Shown here one piece after another: positions 173 through 9,976 of a stretch of DNA of 30,505 nucleotides. The position numbers and the translations under genes are program-made. The stretch is from positions 1 through 30,505 of the IMG/VR virus record IMGVR_UViG_2565956726_000013; one strand, given 5' to 3'. Source of the stretch: a virus (lineage: Duplodnaviria > Heunggongvirae > Uroviricota > Caudoviricetes). The notes below the pieces were generated by a model. The model was not told the origin of the DNA. It saw nothing but the letters and a program-made list of their open reading frames with translations, and did not search any database. Position 1 is the stretch's first letter. Each line of letters opens with the position of its first letter.

Positions 173-1222
173 TTATGCAACCTCTGCCGCCACATTGTCG
201 CCAACATACAGCGATAACGGATTGAGGGTTACAGCTTGTTCAAGGTGGTCAGGAGCAAAGTGCGCATACTTCATTGTTTCTCGAATATTGGCATGTCCGA
301 GAATTTTCTGCAGCACCAGTATATTCCCTCCGTTCATCATAAAATGCGCACCAAAAGTATGACGCAAAACGTGCGTCTTCTGCCCTTCCGTCAATTCAAT
401 ATTCGTTAGTTTGAGCATCTTTTTAAACTCCTGATAGCAGGGTTTAAACATTCTGCCTTGACGTACGGACAACTCGTCGTACAGCCATTTAGGAATAGGA
501 ACTGTGCGATTCTTCTTACCTTTGGTTTTGGTGAACGTTAGTTTATATGGAGAAAGTTGAGGTCGGGTCAATCTCTCCGCTTCCCCCCATCGAGCGCCGG
601 TTGCAAGGCACACCTTAACAATCATGGTGAGGTCTTCTTTGCCGTATTGCTCGCAGGCTCGAAACAGCTCCGGGAGCTGAGACAAAGTTAGCCAGGACAT
701 TTCTTTCTCAGCTTCTTTGAATACTCGGATCCCATCAAGTGGATTGGGTAGGCTCCACTCCCCTAACCGGCGGAGCTCATTAAACACTGCTTCTAGGTAT
801 TGTTGTTCGCGATTGACGGTTATAGGTTTGGCGATCCATTTCGAGGGGTCTTTATGATAACCATTGTCTATTTCACCACGTAATCGACGGTCACGATAAT
901 GAGCCCAGTCTTTCGCGGTAAGGCGAGATGCAATCGGGTCGCCAAGTCCATTACATACGATTTGAAGCTTTGCAAACCTCGACTTACTGGCGACTAACGC
1001 TTGACCGTGCAAATTGTGCCAAAGCTGAATAATCTCGCTTAAGCGTCGGCGGTCTTCTTTCTTGCCGAGCCACGGCTTATCTTCACTCTCGCTTTTGGTA
1101 AATGCTTCAAATGCCTCGGCCTCACCTTTGGTATTGAACTGCCGACGTATACGCCGCCCTTCTCGACCATTTGGATAGAGTTCACACAACCATTTTCCAC
1201 TTTTTTGTTTACTTACAGTCAT
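173..1222 (-). CDS. int: Phage integrase, tyrosine recombinase (P2/186 family)
   Basis: 349-aa ORF; C-terminal region ...THVLRHTFGAHF...LGHANIRETMKYAHF... fits the tyrosine-recombinase catalytic box (R, H-x-x-R, Y); sits at the prophage edge next to the repressor operon. Confidence 0.9.
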   Translation of the reverse strand: MTVSKQKSGKWLCELYPNGREGRRIRRQFNTKGEAEAFEAFTKSESEDKPWLGKKEDRRRLSEIIQLWHNLHGQALVASKSRFAKLQIVCNGLGDPIASRLTAKDWAHYRDRRLRGEIDNGYHKDPSKWIAKPITVNREQQYLEAVFNELRRLGEWSLPNPLDGIRVFKEAEKEMSWLTLSQLPELFRACEQYGKEDLTMIVKVCLATGARWGEAERLTRPQLSPYKLTFTKTKGKKNRTVPIPKWLYDELSVRQGRMFKPCYQEFKKMLKLTNIELTEGQKTHVLRHTFGAHFMMNGGNILVLQKILGHANIRETMKYAHFAPDHLEQAVTLNPLSLYVGDNVAAEVA

Positions 1223-1246: not shown

Positions 1247-1585
1247 TTAATTACAAAGGGCTGTAGCGGCATCAATCACCGGTGAAATTGAAATTTTAAC
1301 GCCGTCATACTCAGGGTCATCCTTCCATACGTCATCTAAGTTAGACCCCTCCAGCTTTCCTGATTTAACAGCATCTACCGCCATGCCATTCAGAGGATAT
1401 CTATCATCAGTTTTGATGTCATACACAAAAGCATAAGCACGGTTAACACATGATACCTTTGCCTTTTCAAAGGTTAGAGGCCACTTGTCACCATATGCAG
1501 CGCCGTCTATCTCTTTAAACTTCTCAGCGGCTATGGCTGAGGAAGAAAGTGCAATGCAGACTATCGCAAATATAAACTTTTTCAT
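1247..1585 (-). CDS. Small secreted protein with cleavable signal peptide, possibly DUF2511/YebY-like (moron between cI and int)
   Basis: 112 aa; N-terminus MKKFIFAIVCIALSSSAIAAE is a classic Sec signal peptide; strong RBS (AGGAG) overlapping the cI stop; motif RYPLNGMA recalled as DUF2511-like (from memory, unverified). Confidence 0.6.
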   Translation of the reverse strand: MKKFIFAIVCIALSSSAIAAEKFKEIDGAAYGDKWPLTFEKAKVSCVNRAYAFVYDIKTDDRYPLNGMAVDAVKSGKLEGSNLDDVWKDDPEYDGVKISISPVIDAATALCN

Positions 1586-1594
1586 TACTGCTCC

Positions 1595-2440
1595 TTAAAC
1601 ATGCTTTTCCAAAGTAAAAATAACCGCACCTGATGGTGTGATATCTGAAATATTACATTCAAACTCAGCAGACTTATTTGATAACCTGACCTTTCCGCCT
1701 GGCAACCTGATTACGTCAAAAACATCGAGTGCGCCATCAATACCAATAAGCCAGCGACCATTTCCTATCTTCGAGTTAGAACTATCAACAAGCCAAGATG
1801 TGCTCACACCATCAATAAACACTAAATCATCAGTATTTGATGGAACCATAGATATATCAGGAGTCCAGCGTCCGATATCTTTGAGTTCGCCAGCCTCGAG
1901 GCGGCACTTTCTAATCGTTAAAGCATTTGCCGGTTCACCATCATTACTGTTACGCATCTGGCCTTTTCCGGTTGATAACCATTCTAACGATACGCCAGTA
2001 TCAAGGGCGCAAGTGACAACCACGTCACCGGGGAAAAAATCGCGTCTAACCCAAGTGCTTATAGTGCCGGAAGATATACCTAATAAATCTCCAAGCTCTT
2101 TTTGCAGAGTAAAACCATACGCATCGAGAATCCGACGCAGAACCGCCCTCCCTCCATTTGCCATGATTTCATCATAGAGTTGCTTACCTTTAAGCTTAGT
2201 TTTCACCACTTCAAATCTTGCATTTGCAAGCTCACCATTAATTAGCCATCGCAGGTCAGCTCCAGTATCAAGAGCACACTCAACGAAAACGTTGCTAGGG
2301 ATTACGTTTCTAGCAAGCCAGCTACTCACGTTGTTTGCATGTATGCCAAGCCTTTCGGCTAGTTCCTTTTGCTGCTTAAAGCCGTATGCAGAAAGGACAC
2401 GTTCCAATGCGGCAGACGCATTAACATCATTTTTAGACAT
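1595..2440 (-). CDS. cI: CI-type phage repressor with tandemly duplicated N-terminal HTH domain and LexA/S24-like C-terminal domain
   Basis: Listed ORF extends to 2629, but the likely start is the ATG at 2438-2440 (MSKNDVNASAALERVLSAYGF...). Two internal repeats: LERVLSAYGFKQQKELAERLGI...VECALDTGADLRWLINGE and LRRILDAYGFTLQKELGDLLGI...VTCALDTGVSLEWLSTGKG. C-terminus has an AG dipeptide and DISM...VIRL...GGKVRL...SAEF resembling the LexA S24 fold. Confidence 0.8.
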   Translation of the reverse strand: MSKNDVNASAALERVLSAYGFKQQKELAERLGIHANNVSSWLARNVIPSNVFVECALDTGADLRWLINGELANARFEVVKTKLKGKQLYDEIMANGGRAVLRRILDAYGFTLQKELGDLLGISSGTISTWVRRDFFPGDVVVTCALDTGVSLEWLSTGKGQMRNSNDGEPANALTIRKCRLEAGELKDIGRWTPDISMVPSNTDDLVFIDGVSTSWLVDSSNSKIGNGRWLIGIDGALDVFDVIRLPGGKVRLSNKSAEFECNISDITPSGAVIFTLEKHV

Positions 2441-2553
2441 ATGACACCAACAAGAATTTTGTTTACAACCAAAATTTAGCGATCTATATTGGTGCTCACC
2501 GACCAAGATGCACACCACTGCACTACATTTCAAACAACAGGAGATAATGCGAT
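2441..2553. promoter_or_regulatory. Divergent lysis/lysogeny switch region (pR/pL-type promoters and operators, not resolved)
   Basis: 113-bp AT-rich intergenic region between divergently transcribed cI (minus) and the early operon (plus); contains repeated CACCAAC/CACCGACCAAG-like motifs. Individual -35/-10 boxes and operators not assigned. Confidence 0.4.
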
Positions 2554-2925
2554 ATGTCAGATGCAAAATCAATCTCGACGCACGACTCGCAAAACTCACA
2601 AAATCAAACTGTGCTGCTAGATCCAACACAGTTTGATGCCATCGTTACCGCCATGCTGCCAGCTCTACAGACAATGATTCGCTCCGCTATGTCAGACACG
2701 ATGACTGTGAAAGACTTCGCCGCTACTCGCGGTGTTAGCGAGCGTCTGGTCTGGCAATGGCTCGATGAGGGAGTCCTTCTCAAAGCTCCGACCAAAGACT
2801 TTTCCAACAAAGAGGAAGCTGCTAAACGAAGCCGAACCCTCGTAAACGTAAAAGCATGGCGCGATAAGCTGACTCAACAAGCGATTGATTGTCGCTACAT
2901 CGACCAGCGCACCGCTCTTAACTGA
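2554..2925 (+). CDS. Apl/Cox-like early regulator / excisionase-type HTH protein (putative)
   Basis: 123 aa; RBS AGGAGA upstream of ATG; segment MTVKDFAATRGVSERLVWQWLDEG resembles excisionase/AlpA-type HTH; first gene of the early operon, divergent from cI as in 186 (apl) and P2 (cox). Confidence 0.5.
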   Translation: MSDAKSISTHDSQNSQNQTVLLDPTQFDAIVTAMLPALQTMIRSAMSDTMTVKDFAATRGVSERLVWQWLDEGVLLKAPTKDFSNKEEAAKRSRTLVNVKAWRDKLTQQAIDCRYIDQRTALN

Positions 2926-2957
2926 ATTTGATTATGCAAGTTAGAGGGAATTTAACC

Positions 2958-3467
2958 ATGTTTGATTTTCAGGTTTCCAAACATCCCCACTATGACGAAG
3001 CATGCCGCATTTTCGCACAGCGTCACAACATGGCGAAGCTGGCCGAGCGTGCAGGTATGAACGTTCAAACGTTACGTAACAAGCTCAACCCGGAACAGCC
3101 TCACCAGTTCACGCCGTCTGAATTGTGGCTGCTGACTGACCTGACCGAAGACTCAACCCTCATTGATGGTTTTTTAGCGCAGATTCACTGCCTACCATGC
3201 GTGCCGGTTAATGAGTTGGCTAAAGACAAATTGCAGTCTTATGTCATGCGCGCAATGCGTGAACTCGGCGAACTGGCGAGCGGCGCGGTATCTGATGAAC
3301 GTCTGACCATTGCCCGTAAGCACAACATGATTGAAAGCGTTAACTCCGGCATTCGCATGTTGTCATTGTCGGCTCTGGCGCTGCATGCACGTCTGCAGAC
3401 TAATCCAGCTATGTCGAGCGTGGTCGATACCATGAGCGGTATTGGCGCATCGTTTGGTCTGATTTGA
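2958..3467 (+). CDS. cII: CII-like transcriptional activator (phage 186 CII family)
   Basis: Start chosen at ATG 2958 (RBS GAGGGA 8 nt upstream) rather than the listed TTG at 2928; product begins MFDFQVSKHPHYDEACRIFAQRHNMAKLAERAGMNVQTLRNKL, matching my recollection of 186 CII. Confidence 0.8.
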   Translation: MFDFQVSKHPHYDEACRIFAQRHNMAKLAERAGMNVQTLRNKLNPEQPHQFTPSELWLLTDLTEDSTLIDGFLAQIHCLPCVPVNELAKDKLQSYVMRAMRELGELASGAVSDERLTIARKHNMIESVNSGIRMLSLSALALHARLQTNPAMSSVVDTMSGIGASFGLI

Positions 3468-4494: not shown

Positions 4495-6717
4495 TTGGCT
4501 GTTCAATTCGCTTATCCGTGGAACGTCCCACGGTCGGCAATCTCCAGCCCATACCTTACTTATGAGCAACAGCATCGCCGCGACCGTATGTTCGCGGCTT
4601 TGCTGCATGCAAAAAAGGTGCTTTCTCTCCAGCCCGACAGCGTGCGGTTAGATGTTTATCGCACTGCTGCGGTGCTGGAGCAAAATCAGGGTAGTCAACG
4701 AGCCAATGCATTTTTAATCAGCTTCTGCAAAAAGGCATTGCCGCGTCTTGAACTGGTCGCAAAAAAATACGAATGCGCTGGTATCAACAGCAAGGTATCA
4801 ACCGCTGTTTTTGGAAGTCATTTTGATACTCAGCAAATGCAATATCTGTCGTCACGCATGGTTAATATGGTCGCCAGATATAACCGTCTCCCGGACATGT
4901 CGCGCGCTGATGTTGACCTGTTGGCCGCTGATATTGCTAATTTCATTCGTGGTGAACTTGCCAACATTAATGACCACGGATTCGGCGAGCTTAAAACGCT
5001 GTACACCTGGTATATTCGTGCTGGCTTTATTTCCCTCCAATTCAACGTTATCCCACCACATTGGGAGCGGGTTGAAAAAAAATATGTCGGTGCGGATGAA
5101 ATCGCACCGGCTATCGCCAAAATGTTTAACGATGGGTGGTGGCGCGGTCGTTTGCGCCGTGTTGCAGCTACGTGGCGCGAACACCTGCAAATTGCAGTCG
5201 GCAACGTCAGTAAGAAAAAAAACACTTACGCGAGTAAAAACTGCGTGACTGACTGGCGTGAACAAAAGCGCCGCACTCGTGAATTTCTCAAAGGTCTGGA
5301 TCTCGAAGACGAAGACGGCAACCGTATCAGCCTGATTGAAAAATATGATGGCTCAGTTGCTAACCCTGCGATTCGCCGCTGTGAGCTCATGACCCGCATT
5401 CGTGGGTTTGAAAACATCTGTAATGAGCTCGGTTATGTCGGTGAGTTTTACACTCTAACCGCGCCGTCAAAATATCACGCCACGACTAAAGCCGGTTACC
5501 GTAACAGCAAATGGAGCGGTGCCAGCCCGGCTGACACGCAAAACTATCTAACCGGTATCTGGGCGCGTATCCGTGCCAAACTACATCGGGAAGATGTCCG
5601 TATTTTCGGTATTCGTGTCGCCGAGCCCCATCACGACGGCACTCCACACTGGCACATGCTGATGTTCATGCTGCCGGAAGATGTTGAATATGTTCGCTCC
5701 ATCGTCCGTAAATACGCATGGAAAGAAGACCGCCACGAACTGAAAAGCGATAAATCCAAAAAAGCACGTTTCCACGCCGAGTCCATTGACCCGGAGAAAG
5801 GCAGCGCAACCGGCTATGTTGCTAAATACATTTCAAAAAATATCGACGGTTATGCTCTCGATGGTGAAACCGATGATGAAAGCGGTGAGCTGCTGAAAGA
5901 GACAGCCCCCGCCGTTTCAGCATGGGCTGCGCGCTGGCACATCCGTCAGTTTCAGTTTATTGGTGGTGCGCCGGTGACGGTTTACCGTGAGTTGCGTCGC
6001 CTCGCTGATACCGAAACCGCGCACGGTCTGAGCGTTGAGTTTGCCGCCGTCCATGATGCCGCCGACGCTGGTGACTGGGCTGGTTATGTTAATGCTCAGG
6101 GTGGGCCGTTTGTCCGTCGCGATGATTTACAGGTGCGCACACTGTATGAACCGCGTACCGAGCTTAATCAGTACGGTGAGGAAACGGTATGTATTAAGGG
6201 GGTCTACGATTCCTCCATAGGTGCAGGAAGCCCGATTTTAACCCGGCTCACTCAGTGGAAGATTGTTCCGAAGCGTGCTGTTGATTTGGCCGTTGACCTT
6301 CAGGACGGCAAAGCCGTCCCTCGGAGTTCTGTCAATAACTGTACGGGAAGCGAAAGCGATCCACCGATACTGGATTTAACAAAACCACTGAGTCGGCGTG
6401 AAAGACGAGAATTGACCAACCGACTCAGGAAGCAAAAGCCAGCAGCACGGCGAAAATTCATCCACGGAACGGATGAGCAAAACGCAGCTATAGCTAAAAC
6501 TATCGACGAGATACATCTGACAACCGGCATTAATATCAGCCGGGGCGAAGCCCTGCACCTGATGGCCGGTGGTAAAAGTTGTTTTGATGGGAAATGGCTA
6601 CGCGGAACGGCCAAAGGAGAAATATTTTCCGCAGCACCATCGCATGAGGCTAAAGCTCGGAAAATCCTTAATCGTGTTGCGGCGATGGCTGAAGCATCAA
6701 AACCAAGACATGAGTAA
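4495..6717 (+). CDS. A: Replication initiation endonuclease, rolling-circle initiator (P2 gpA / 186 RepA family)
   Basis: 740 aa; N-terminus MAVQFAYPWNVPR parallels P2 A (MAVKASGRF...); conserved HUH-type motifs EPHHDGTPHWHMLMF and GYVAKYISKNIDGY (active-site tyrosine region). Apparent TTG start at 4495 with a G-rich RBS. Confidence 0.9.
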   Translation: MAVQFAYPWNVPRSAISSPYLTYEQQHRRDRMFAALLHAKKVLSLQPDSVRLDVYRTAAVLEQNQGSQRANAFLISFCKKALPRLELVAKKYECAGINSKVSTAVFGSHFDTQQMQYLSSRMVNMVARYNRLPDMSRADVDLLAADIANFIRGELANINDHGFGELKTLYTWYIRAGFISLQFNVIPPHWERVEKKYVGADEIAPAIAKMFNDGWWRGRLRRVAATWREHLQIAVGNVSKKKNTYASKNCVTDWREQKRRTREFLKGLDLEDEDGNRISLIEKYDGSVANPAIRRCELMTRIRGFENICNELGYVGEFYTLTAPSKYHATTKAGYRNSKWSGASPADTQNYLTGIWARIRAKLHREDVRIFGIRVAEPHHDGTPHWHMLMFMLPEDVEYVRSIVRKYAWKEDRHELKSDKSKKARFHAESIDPEKGSATGYVAKYISKNIDGYALDGETDDESGELLKETAPAVSAWAARWHIRQFQFIGGAPVTVYRELRRLADTETAHGLSVEFAAVHDAADAGDWAGYVNAQGGPFVRRDDLQVRTLYEPRTELNQYGEETVCIKGVYDSSIGAGSPILTRLTQWKIVPKRAVDLAVDLQDGKAVPRSSVNNCTGSESDPPILDLTKPLSRRERRELTNRLRKQKPAARRKFIHGTDEQNAAIAKTIDEIHLTTGINISRGEALHLMAGGKSCFDGKWLRGTAKGEIFSAAPSHEAKARKILNRVAAMAEASKPRHE

Positions 6718-6791: not shown

Positions 6792-6811
6792 TACTGTATA
6801 AATATACAGTA
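6792..6811. promoter_or_regulatory. LexA operator (SOS box) overlapping a promoter
   Basis: TACTGTATAAATATACAGTA: perfect CTGT-N8-ACAG palindrome with AT-rich spacer; possible -35 TTGCCA upstream; RBS GGGAGGG and ATG 6831 follow. Confidence 0.75.
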
Positions 6812-6830: not shown

Positions 6831-7013
6831 ATGGTTGGCGAACATTTCAGCCGAACGCAGCAAAAGTGGGCTTGTGTGCAATTTATTGCCGAGGTATCTC
6901 TGATTGCAAACTGCAAGCCATCAGACTTAAAGCTCGCGCTCACTCTCATTGCAGACCTAGCAAACAGCGAAAATAACGAAACCGAAGATGATAATTTTTA
7001 TAAGGCTGATTAG
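6831..7013 (+). CDS. SOS-regulated small protein, Tum-like antirepressor N-terminal part (putative)
   Basis: 60-aa ORF directly downstream of the LexA box with a strong RBS; ends at TAG 7011-7013, in the same frame as and 3 nt before the DinI-like ORF. Confidence 0.5.
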   Translation: MVGEHFSRTQQKWACVQFIAEVSLIANCKPSDLKLALTLIADLANSENNETEDDNFYKAD

Positions 7014-7016
7014 ATT

Positions 7017-7250
7017 ATGAGAATCAATATCACGTTGGATAAAGAGCAAAAAATTAGTCAGACAACGTTGGATGCACTTGAGGCTGAGCTGTACCGCAAT
7101 CTTCAACCTATTTACCCAAAGACTGCTATCCGCATTCGTAAGGGCTCAGCTAATGGCGTTGAGCTAAGCGGTTTGAAACTGGACGAAGATAAAAAACGAG
7201 TGATGGAAATCATGCAGCAGGTATGGGAGGACGATAGCTGGCTGCATTAA
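7017..7250 (+). CDS. DinI-family protein (DinI-like C-terminal part of a Tum-type module)
   Basis: 77 aa; MRINITLDK...LDALEAELYRNLQ...DKKRVMEIMQQVWEDDSW aligns by eye with E. coli DinI (MRIEVTIAK...IDALAGELSRRIQ...DKQRISEILQETWESADDW). Confidence 0.75.
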   Translation: MRINITLDKEQKISQTTLDALEAELYRNLQPIYPKTAIRIRKGSANGVELSGLKLDEDKKRVMEIMQQVWEDDSWLH

Positions 7251-8371: not shown

Positions 8372-8435
8372 TCGGTGTCAATGAGTAGAAGATGAAAAAA
8401 TAATAACCAAAGGTTACTAAATCAAGGATGTGCCG

Positions 8436-9254
8436 ATGAAAGTTAGCTATGACGTTGTCATCAAAAGTGGTGATCAAGAAGTTGATATGGAGTATGGCCT
8501 TGATACCCTCTCTGGAACGGCTGAGGTGACATGCATACTAGCAGAGGCAATACTCAGAAAAAAAATTATTAAGCGCCGCACTCATGTTAACCCTGCGCGA
8601 GCGGTTCTCAAACAAAGCTTTAAAAGTTCTTATGGTCAAAACTTCGACTTGATTGTTAATGAGCCGGAATTAGCTGCCGAATTAAAAAAAATGACCCGTT
8701 CTGTGTTCTCGGAAGTCATGGGGTATTTTATTTCTGAATCTCTATATCTGGAAACTAAGGAGCTATCTCCAAAAGCTGCAGGAATTATTGAGGAGCTTGA
8801 GGAAATTGAAGATGAACTTATTGATCGTATCAGACAACCTTTGGTAAGGATGCATAGGATAAATCTTCAAAAAAACTTTGATGTTGAACTTAACTATAAA
8901 AAACCTGCTGGCAAACAAAGAATAGCAAAGTTAGACACAATGACTGCTACAAACTTGACACAATCAAAAATAATGCCCGGTCAAGTTAATATTAACGCAG
9001 TTATTACTCGATTTAATGCGAGAACTGGAAATGGTAGGTTAGTTATCGAAGGTGAAGATGATACAGTAGCCTTTGGTTTTTACATGCCTTTAAAGGCTAT
9101 ACCCGCCGCTCAAAAAAGATTGGTCTCATTAAATTTACACAATAATAATGGCAGGCAAGATAACTACACATATCTAAAACTTACTGTTAGTAAAGTTGTA
9201 GTAAAAAGTGGTGATGTGGTGAAATATCTAATCCGTATGGTTGAAACTGTATGA
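8436..9254 (+). CDS. Cargo protein A of a two-gene cassette (unknown function, soluble)
   Basis: ATG 8436 with RBS AAGGA 7 nt upstream (listed ORF starts at GTG 8430); 272 aa; AT-rich unlike the phage backbone; no Walker A or other motif recognised; stop overlaps the start of the next ORF. Confidence 0.7.
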   Translation: MKVSYDVVIKSGDQEVDMEYGLDTLSGTAEVTCILAEAILRKKIIKRRTHVNPARAVLKQSFKSSYGQNFDLIVNEPELAAELKKMTRSVFSEVMGYFISESLYLETKELSPKAAGIIEELEEIEDELIDRIRQPLVRMHRINLQKNFDVELNYKKPAGKQRIAKLDTMTATNLTQSKIMPGQVNINAVITRFNARTGNGRLVIEGEDDTVAFGFYMPLKAIPAAQKRLVSLNLHNNNGRQDNYTYLKLTVSKVVVKSGDVVKYLIRMVETV

Positions 9255-9976
9255 GAAAGGTGTTGCTGTCTTCGGCTGGCGTGATTGTAGCTGTGTGCGC
9301 CTTGTATTACTTCAACTTCGGAGTAAACGGACATTTATCCAGCAAGACTGATGTTTGGGCGCAGTTTGGTGATTATTTGGGTGGTGTCGTCAACCCTATA
9401 CTTTCATTTATTACAATTTACCTCCTTATAAATTCAATAAAACTTCAAAGGGAGGCTAATTCCAGCCTGATCGATGAAGTAAAAAGGCAAGAATCTTTAG
9501 AAGAGTATAAAAAATTTGAAGTGAGATTTTTCCATTTGGTTGAATGTCAGGATTCTAACTTTGAAAGGTTTTGTGTTCAAGTTGGTGATGTTGATGGACA
9601 AACTGACGGGGTGGTCGAAGAATTTACAAGTGGTGCAGCCGTAACTTATCTTGAAGATAATATTGTAATTTTAGTTAAAGCCAAGGTAAAAAAAGAGGTA
9701 ATAACAACGTGGTTAAGTGAAGTGGATGCTAATGATTGCATTTTTTCAGTGGTGCGTCGCTTTTATTTGATTGTGAAGTTGATAGATAATTGCGGGGTTG
9801 AACGGGAAGATTATTATGAAACATTAGTTAACTTAACTGACATAAAAATAATATCTTTAGTTGCAATGGCTTGTACATACTACGAGTGGGATATCGTAAA
9901 GTATATCCATGACAGTAAAATACTTGAACGAGATGGAGTTAAAGAGTTTGTTTCGCAAATATCCACTCACGATTGA
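9251..9976 (+). CDS. Cargo protein B of a two-gene cassette (membrane protein with two N-terminal TM helices, unknown function)
   Basis: ATG 9251 overlaps the upstream TGA (ATGA coupling); 241 aa; hydrophobic segments VLLSSAGVIVAVCALYYFNF and GGVVNPILSFITIYLLINSI, then a roughly 175-aa soluble domain; AT-rich. Confidence 0.7.
   Translation: MRKVLLSSAGVIVAVCALYYFNFGVNGHLSSKTDVWAQFGDYLGGVVNPILSFITIYLLINSIKLQREANSSLIDEVKRQESLEEYKKFEVRFFHLVECQDSNFERFCVQVGDVDGQTDGVVEEFTSGAAVTYLEDNIVILVKAKVKKEVITTWLSEVDANDCIFSVVRRFYLIVKLIDNCGVEREDYYETLVNLTDIKIISLVAMACTYYEWDIVKYIHDSKILERDGVKEFVSQISTHD

Follow-up and report, generated by a model that had tools for sequence, protein, structure and literature searches.

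The immunity repressor CI of a PSP3/186-like, P2-type phage (Eganvirus) carries two helix-turn-helix (HTH) domains in one chain. In this study, we analysed the genome of this phage in IMG/VR record IMGVR_UViG_2565956726_000013 (positions 1 to 30,505; the whole 30,505-nt stretch is called the window). The cI gene lies at 1595..2440 on the minus strand, with its ATG at 2440 and a TAA stop at 1595-1597, and its open reading frame (ORF) translates into 281 aa; the annotation of Salmonella phage SI22 gives the same 281-aa reading frame for cI. It is probable that the window CI is a PSP3/186-like repressor whose two heads share the DNA-binding work, that does not cleave itself, and that is inactivated by the antirepressor TumA. 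According to this reading, the variable first head (HTH1) would read an immunity-specific inverted repeat over the -35 element of the early lytic promoter pR (AATTTTG-N8-CAAAATT here). The conserved second head (HTH2) would read a palindrome with an FL-like copy about 240 bp left of pR and an FR-like copy about 470 bp right of it, over the CII-dependent promoter pE; relatives have a further copy at the late-activator pag/ogr promoter. By analogy with 186, a CI oligomer with a wheel-forming C-terminal domain (CTD) would connect pR with its flanking sites through looping or wrapping of the DNA. Immunity would then change by a swap of HTH1 together with the pR operator, with the long-range architecture, the control of pE and the late genes, and the antirepressor kept constant; under SOS conditions, LexA-controlled TumA would inactivate CI.

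The two-head architecture was observed directly in domain searches. Pfam matched Phage_CI_repr (PF07022) twice in CI (E 1.5e-47) and Phage_CI_C (PF16452) at aa 176-269 (E 4.6e-19). A custom domain hidden Markov model (HMM) placed the HTH copies at aa 8-69 (2234..2419, minus strand) and aa 97-158 (1967..2152, minus strand). BLASTP of aa 1-91 against aa 92-281 showed 43% identity over about 90 aa (E 5e-23), and the HTH cores alone were 51% identical. An earlier reading of this DNA from its letters (the sequence-only reading) had described tandem CI-type HTH domains in one chain, and this description was borne out. The repeat unit of about 90 aa comprises the HTH, a linker and the first beta-hairpin of the CTD (NGELANARFEVVKTKLKGKQLYD versus DGEPANALTIRKCRLEAGELKD). 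In the first copy, the hairpin has turned into a low-confidence loop (aa 71-81, where the AlphaFold2 predicted local distance difference test score is <50) and a conserved helix, predicted at aa 86-95. The inter-domain linker (aa 70-96; 2153..2233, minus strand), which is disordered and then helical, is homologous to the CTD linker plus the first beta-hairpin. It carries the conserved motif KGKxLY..GG, in which K84, G85, K86, L88, Y89, G96 and G97 are invariant. The CTD, an oligomerisation domain of the 186 CI type, covers aa 176-281 (1598..1915, minus strand).

We compared this arrangement with that of coliphage 186 CI (2FJR, full length; 2FKD, CTD 14-mer). The two proteins are only about 33% identical, and the window CI has an extra N-terminal HTH. 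CI aa 100-274 aligned with the whole of 186 CI (2FJR residues 10-182; E 4e-21), so that HTH2 takes the position of the single 186 CI N-terminal domain. In a representative library of 1.8 billion proteins, single-HTH CIs of about 190 aa aligned with query aa 95-280. The window CI is therefore a complete 186-type CI with an extra HTH in front, and HTH1 is, as judged from these alignments, an add-on module fused to its N-terminus. The same two-HTH architecture was found in the CIs of Salmonella phage PSP3 (AAN08403.1), SW9/SI22, SEN1, Midge, RCIP0057 and vB_EcoM-613R3, which are 278-287 aa long and 67-92% identical to the window CI (91.5% for SI22/SW9 and 73% for PSP3).

The two heads were conserved to very different degrees. 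Averaged over 127 full-length homologues, identity to the query was 59% for HTH1, 58% for the first linker, 90% for HTH2, 45% for the second linker and 71% for the CTD. Deep relatives, taken as 50%-identity cluster representatives with an overall identity of 42-57%, kept 66-82% identity in HTH2, compared to 26-54% in the CTD and 31-54% in HTH1. Among 27 cI genes, the amino-acid difference was 0.17 in HTH2, 0.45 in HTH1 and 0.54 in the CTD. A synonymous proxy, the fraction of same-amino-acid codons that differ in DNA, was about 0.6 in all three regions of these genes (HTH1 0.59, HTH2 0.61). The low amino-acid difference of HTH2 at an equal synonymous proxy therefore reflects purifying selection and not recent transfer. 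These results demonstrated that purifying selection acts far more strongly on HTH2 than on HTH1 or the CTD.

We next describe the DNA around pR. A consensus scan (10/12 matches) gave a candidate early lytic promoter pR, TTTACA-17-TATATT (2462..2490, plus strand), which reads into the gene for a Cox/Apl analogue and whose TTTACA is kept across relatives. The perfect inverted repeat AATTTTG-N8-CAAAATT (2455..2476) lies over its -35 element and is proposed to be the HTH1 operator. This was its single perfect occurrence in the 30.5-kb window, where no further copies of the pR palindrome were found, and the repeat was also present in SI22, whose HTH1 is the same. An alignment of six phages revealed a mosaic joint near 2497. 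To the right of it, the pR leader and the Cox/Apl-analogue gene are common across immunity types. To the left, the pR -35/-10 region and HTH1 fall into three groups, namely the window with SI22, PSP3 with 613R3, and Midge with RCIP0057; among PSP3-type relatives there are at least three such immunity groups, and the window groups with SI22/SW9. When 26 regulatory regions were compared, most HTH1 groups had their own inverted repeat around TTTACA, and the PSP3 group had direct repeats instead. Close HTH1 variants went with close repeat arms, TTTTCTT..AAGAAAA with AKSNVAGW and TTTTCGTAT..ATACAAAAA with SSSNVGGW. The window and SI22 differed at 3 of 113 intergenic positions and in about 40% of the same-amino-acid codons of the adjacent HTH1. 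These comparisons indicate that HTH1 varies together with the putative pR -35 operator.

A second class of candidate operators was found in the flanks. Thirty-one viral contigs (L009-L039) encode single-HTH CIs with an HTH2-type head (P0132, 196 aa), and in them the palindrome AACTTGCA-TT-TGCAAGTT (consensus ACTTGCA-N2-TGCAAGT) forms the 17-nt spacer of a divergent TTGACA/TAGATT promoter upstream of cI; the flanks diverge and the palindrome is kept. A position weight matrix (PWM) was trained solely on these promoter-spacer palindromes. Its top match in the window (22.2 bits) was the FL-like palindrome ATCTTGCATTTGCAAGCT at 2215..2232, inside cI at codons 70-75 (ELANAR). Its second match (20.1 bits) was the FR-like palindrome AATTTGATTATGCAAGTT at 2925..2942, between the stop of the cox analogue and the start of cII, where it overlaps the presumed pE -10. 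Both are proposed to be HTH2 operators. The third-best match reached 10.3 bits, at the level of the maxima of shuffled genomes (10.6 bits on average). For PSP3, Midge and SI22, scanned as complete genomes, the top three matches scored 17-25 bits; one fell in the gap that separates the cox analogue from cII, one about 210-245 nt inside cI and one in the pag/ogr promoter region. The window reaches as far as the gene D stop codon, and its own pag promoter thus lies outside it. The flanking palindromes are the same in the window and its PSP3-type relatives. In a set of 49 double-HTH viral loci with a wide range of HTH1 types, a site was found at +208 to +229 of cI in nearly all and at -509 to -536 in most.

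The location of the FR-like site was compared with that in 186. It lies 24.5 nt from the cII ATG, and the FR of 186 (ATTCAC-N5-GTGAAT) lies 22.5 nt from it, with the same CII site adjoining. The position is shared and the palindrome differs (ACTTGCA..TGCAAGT in the window, ATTCAC..GTGAAT in 186), so it is the palindrome that varies according to which head type adjoins the CTD. 186 CI forms a 14-mer wheel of seven dimers, and its FL and FR sites cooperate with pR (PMC3675496). In our computational comparison, the same 186-type arrangement was observed, with candidate operators at pR and at distal sites that flank it at a distance of a few hundred bp. The single HTH of 186 CI reads two distinct recognition sequences, as Shearwin, Dodd and Egan (2002) are cited in PMC3675496, whereas the window CI has two heads available. 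It had been suggested from the sequence that a chain with two DNA-binding domains would recognise operators unlike a one-HTH dimer, and the two putative operator classes obtained by the PWM and by the comparison of regulatory regions are in line with this.

Several points weigh against a division of labour between the heads. The heads were assigned to their sites by conservation logic, and the AlphaFold2 monomer had a predicted template modelling score of 0.41, at which the inter-domain geometry is unreliable. The FL-like site encodes ELANAR, and its conservation may be partly at the protein level. The centre-to-centre distance between the arms of the pR repeat is 15 bp, an unusual spacing for a simple HTH dimer. 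In addition, five single-HTH phages of the L155 type have an HTH2-type head with the same SSGTISTW(I/V)RR recognition helix, yet a different palindrome forms their pR spacer. No PWM palindrome of 14 bits or more was found in these five phages (the best, 13.3 bits, was at the FR position), so that HTH2 and the motif do not correspond one-to-one.

Tethered double HTH proteins are able to read bipartite sites. The window CI could accordingly act as a single-chain pseudo-dimer, with both heads side by side on composite operators at every site and no split between pR and the flanks. The wide spacing of the pR arms would leave room for more contacts, and the sequence GATCTA-A-TG around the pR -10 is kept across HTH1 groups. 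However, the flanking sites are compact palindromes of 16-18 bp that have no group-specific sequence alongside them in loci of many HTH1 types, and the pR region contains no PWM match above noise. We regard the pseudo-dimer as unlikely.

A division of labour between HTH1 at pR and HTH2 at the flanks was also weighed against the distribution of TumA. Among viral loci that carry TumA, 71 had a CI in reach, and in 70 of these an HTH2-type head stood next to the CTD. The window and PSP3 TumA proteins were 98% identical, while HTH1 differed by 42% between the two phages. HTH2 might therefore no longer be mainly a DNA-binding domain and might serve as a docking surface for TumA or as a structural spacer; the palindromes would then be the sites of some other conserved factor, or HTH1 would occupy them non-specifically with the help of wheel cooperativity. 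The L155-type phages, which have the recognition helix and lack the palindrome, would fit such a role. However, the TumA-carrying loci are close relatives, so that their co-occurrence is not independent and cannot separate an HTH2 that binds DNA from an HTH2 that is the target of TumA, which also counts against our own reading. Furthermore, an HTH2-type domain is the sole HTH of functional-looking single-HTH CIs (P0132; the L009-L039, L131 and L155 types), so this head must bind DNA there. The palindrome itself was found as a pR operator in some of these relatives, in the promoter spacer of L009-L039 and as a symmetric variant in L131, and 186 has its FR, to which its CI binds, at the same position. 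A loss of DNA binding by HTH2 thus appears improbable to us, although HTH2 may be both a DNA binder and a target of TumA.

The fold of the CTD was clear. The fold comparison gave figures of 17.5 for the 186 CI CTD (2FKD), 12.1 and 10.0 for LexA, 9.8 for the lambda CI CTD, 8.0 for UmuD' and 5.7 for a signal-peptidase homologue. The CI CTD has the S24/LexA C-terminal fold, as had been supposed from the sequence. Phage_CI_repr twice plus Peptidase_S24 had been named as the expected domain assignment, of which the former was found, but Peptidase_S24 gave no match to CI at E<=1 in Pfam and none in NCBIfam, and Phage_CI_C was found in its place. We aligned a profile of 204 family CTDs with an alignment of LexA, lambda CI and UmuD, using hhalign, and the resulting profile-profile relation was weak (E 8.7e-5 across 90 columns). 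The family motif W-x-P-D-P/I-S-M paired with LexA Q-V-D-P-S-L-F, and DDLVFID paired with ADFLLRV.

The catalytic residues of LexA were not found in this alignment. The sequence-only reading had equated the serine in DISM (aa 195-198) with the LexA serine. DISM instead paired with LexA D100-P-S-L103 and not with G-M-S119-M, and the 11-residue LexA loop that bears G-M-S119-M is missing from the CI CTD. The same reading had noted VIRL (aa 243-246) where LexA has VKRL and suggested that the catalytic lysine may be missing. The lysine is indeed missing, but the proposed pairing is three residues out of register. LexA Lys156 fell on CI F241 by hhalign and on I244 by the earlier pairing, and neither residue is a lysine. 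Among 99 non-redundant family CTDs, no serine was conserved in more than 34% and no lysine in more than 62%; the top lysine, K250, pairs with the non-catalytic LexA K164. The AG dipeptide of the linker (A183-G184 in RLEAGEL, aa 180-186), which had been noted in the sequence, is replaced by SG in most homologues and is not aligned with the A84-G85 of LexA. In these alignments, both the serine nucleophile and the lysine general base are absent from the CI CTD. Since no serine or lysine is conserved across the 99 CTDs, the loss of the dyad is a trait of the whole 186-CI family.

With the dyad missing, RecA-stimulated self-cleavage is therefore not expected to inactivate CI. LexA, lambda CI and UmuD are self-cleaving S24 proteins that are inactivated by cleavage, whereas the window CI has no S24 HMM match, serine loop, lysine base or conserved cleavage site, and its inactivation is proposed to occur by an antirepressor. 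The LexA-like fold, the AG dipeptide at 183-184, and a basic R245 that is invariant in 20 aligned close homologues and lies near the strand of LexA Lys156 could still suggest LexA-style autocleavage through substitute residues or the linker AG site. Against the S24, serine-loop and SG findings above, and with the prototype 186 CI inactivated by an antirepressor (PMC3121763) and a LexA-controlled tumA present here, this alternative is already disfavoured by the sequence comparisons, and we consider it extremely improbable. A repressor unable to autocleave had been put forward from the sequence, on the condition that the residue alignment was right. The loss of the dyad supports this although the alignments behind it were partly wrong, but a non-cleaving LexA-like CTD combined with an antirepressor is no peculiarity of this CI and is standard biology of the 186 family, in which induction by the Tum antirepressor and not by cleavage has already been published (PMC3121763).

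A candidate SOS antirepressor route was found in the window. The LexA box CTGTATAAATATACAG (6794..6809, plus strand) is the sole CTGT-N8-ACAG in the 30.5 kb. It lies 22 nt upstream of a tumA-like antirepressor gene (6831..7013, plus strand; 60 aa) whose product is identical to PSP3 TumA at 59 of 60 positions. The next gene, tumB (7017..7250, plus strand), encodes a DinI homologue (Pfam DinI, E 7e-24) that is 47% identical to the C-terminal half of 186 Tum. A Tum-like antirepressor had been placed adjacent to cI from the sequence. The putative route is present, but tumA is 4.4 kb away from cI. PSP3 TumA is annotated for UV induction, and antirepressor activity of PSP3 tumA has been reported as a personal communication cited in PMC3121763. 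The antirepressor role of TumA rests on that annotation and that communication, a further point to be held against our reading. By analogy, we infer that CI is inactivated by LexA-controlled TumA.

Tum is a single protein in 186 and is split into TumA and TumB in the window. In BLASTP, TumA did not match the N-terminal half of 186 Tum, despite a PSP3 GenBank note that calls TumA similar. PSP3-type TumA (6831-7013) and the antirepressor half of 186 Tum (Tum compared at locus L008, 1583-2023) were without detectable similarity, and the two antirepressors may be unrelated proteins, each matched to a different type of CI head.

We then consider how widespread the tandem heads are. A search of 5.8 billion proteins returned 1005 CI homologues. 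The best 120 of the 1005 were nearly all 276-289 aa long under the generic name 'phage repressor protein CI', and their hosts included Salmonella, Klebsiella, Enterobacter, Escherichia, Citrobacter, Cronobacter, Kosakonia, Brenneria and others. Clustering at 50% gave about 10 double-HTH clusters. These results indicate that the two-head architecture is common in enterobacterial prophages. Two Phage_CI_repr domains before a 186-type CTD were also found in the CI of Klebsiella phage 4LV2017 (ARB15674.1, 313 aa; locus L007), and tandem PF07022 domains before such a CTD in P0138, P0158, P0180, P0193 and P0194. In the representative search, seven and five matched stretches were observed in P0224 (525 aa) and P0252 (1170 aa), respectively.

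A rough neighbour-joining tree of the domains placed PSP3-type HTH1 in one long-branched clade and HTH2 in a short-branched clade together with the heads of some 190-aa single-head CIs. The 4LV2017 heads are 63% identical to each other and fell outside both PSP3-type clades, which points to independent, more recent duplications, and the heads of the 315-358-aa proteins P0180, P0193 and P0194 clustered separately. The sequences point to at least three independent origins of tandem PF07022 heads. We tentatively propose that duplication was followed by subfunctionalisation, which is possible without being the favoured outcome. The two operator classes served by the single HTH of 186 CI would have been split between two heads. 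HTH1 and the pR operator would form a swappable cassette, and HTH2 would be frozen by the FL, FR and late-activator operators and perhaps by recognition by TumA.

Nilsson et al. 2011 (PMC3448106) attributed a 'longer C-terminal domain' to the PsP3 CI and thus did not recognise the duplication. In the papers searched, we found no description of the tandem-HTH architecture of PSP3-type CI, nor of the purifying selection on HTH2, the covariation of HTH1 with the pR -35 region or the conserved palindrome. For annotation, this means that 280-aa 'CI' proteins of this type should be described neither as LexA-type repressors that cleave themselves nor as having a long C-terminal domain. 186 CI serves as a model of how genes are controlled when DNA wraps and loops on a wheel of protein, and in it one HTH has to read two operator types. 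A two-head variant with two matching operator classes would let experiments separate immunity specificity from long-range architecture. If the division of labour is true, it would account for the diversification of immunity, under one shared SOS antirepressor, among the P2-like prophages found in Klebsiella, Enterobacter, Salmonella and E. coli, and an antirepressor shared across varied immunity would have consequences for the cross-induction of co-resident prophages. The tandem head is a widespread variant, for which the asymmetry of selection and the two candidate operator classes suggest a specific, testable mechanism.

The genome context agreed with that of the PSP3 group. The window was 96% identical in DNA to E. 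coli phage vB_EcoM-613R3 and 87-92% identical to SW9/SI22, Midge, RCIP0057, SEN1 and PSP3. Its left-end gene order is that of PSP3 (int, DUF2511, cI, cox analogue, cII ... tumA, tumB). In the ORF map and Pfam assignments, cI heads a leftward cI-int operon facing the apl/cox, cII, fil lytic operon, as in PSP3 and 186. The lysogenic operon contains int, encoding the integrase (173-1222, minus strand), and a gene for a DUF2511 periplasmic protein (1247-1585, minus strand; ORF and Pfam) next to cI. This secreted, YebY-like protein between cI and int is kept in PSP3, SI22, Midge and RCIP0057, and given its place in the lysogenic operon its expression in the prophage is therefore expected.

The first gene of the lytic operon encodes the Cox/Apl analogue (2554..2925, plus strand; 123 aa, PSP3 gp30 type). 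Its Pfam search was without a match, its homologues are labelled Cox or Cro/CI-like in Midge and SI22, and the gene is common to different immunity types. It is followed by cII (2958..3467, plus strand; Phage_CP76, Pfam E 4.4e-46), whose 5' end contains the CII-binding site ATGTTTGATTTTCAGGTTTCCAAACATC (2958-2985), identical to the annotated 186 CII site. Further rightward, ORFs and Pfam matches showed fil, DUF5347, DUF2732 and a DksA-type zinc-finger protein, and then the rightward replication gene A (4495-6717).

Direct repeats were found in the pR leader. TGCAGTG-N3-TGCA, with 10-bp phasing, occurs there as an exact match at 2509..2522 on the minus strand. It is found exactly three times in the window. 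Two overlapping copies at 156-179 abut the int stop, and the third, in the pR leader, is on the opposite strand; about 0.9 matches would be expected even when one mismatch is allowed. Related ATGCAC repeats are kept in the pR leaders of relatives. According to PMC7498355, 186 Apl binds direct repeats one helical turn apart, and the 186 counterpart of the analogue acts at att and between pR and pL. The TGCAGTG-N3-TGCA repeats are probably binding sites of the Cox/Apl analogue, a recombination directionality factor, as judged from their sequence. We also considered the TGCAC repeats of the leader as an HTH2 site and rejected this, since they are 10-bp-phased direct repeats that recur beside int and in relatives, and Cox/Apl sites fit better.

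Other elements were noted near pR. A GATCTA-A-TG element with a Dam site lies over the pR -10 (2479-2492) and is kept in most HTH1 immunity groups; it may reflect a promoter constraint, methylation sensitivity or a further repressor contact. An inverted repeat at 2603-2637 (ATCAAACTGTGCTG / CAACACAGTTTGAT; 14-nt arms, 13/14 complementary, 7-nt gap) lies in the 5' part of the cox-analogue gene. 613R3 has it as well, Midge has a weaker form, and in SI22 and PSP3 it is degraded. We rejected it as a CI operator because it tracks the phylogeny of the cox analogue and is degraded in SI22 despite the same immunity. It could be related to pL or to RNA structure.

Among the single-HTH relatives, the HTH2-type cI lies at the very end of many of the L009-L039 IMG/VR contigs, many of which are about 13-16 kb. 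Opposite cI in L009 are a 91-aa ORF and a gene for a DksA/TraR zinc-finger protein, and no apl/cII module was seen in this locus as read. The L009-L039 contigs may represent a satellite-like or remnant element equipped with the same repressor head and operator. Finally, two overlapping ORFs of 274 and 241 aa were observed as cargo between the tum region and the portal gene of the window (8430-9976). They had no Pfam match and a marginal PADLOC match (ZorB, E 0.002), and the second ORF carries a membrane-like segment at its N-terminus.

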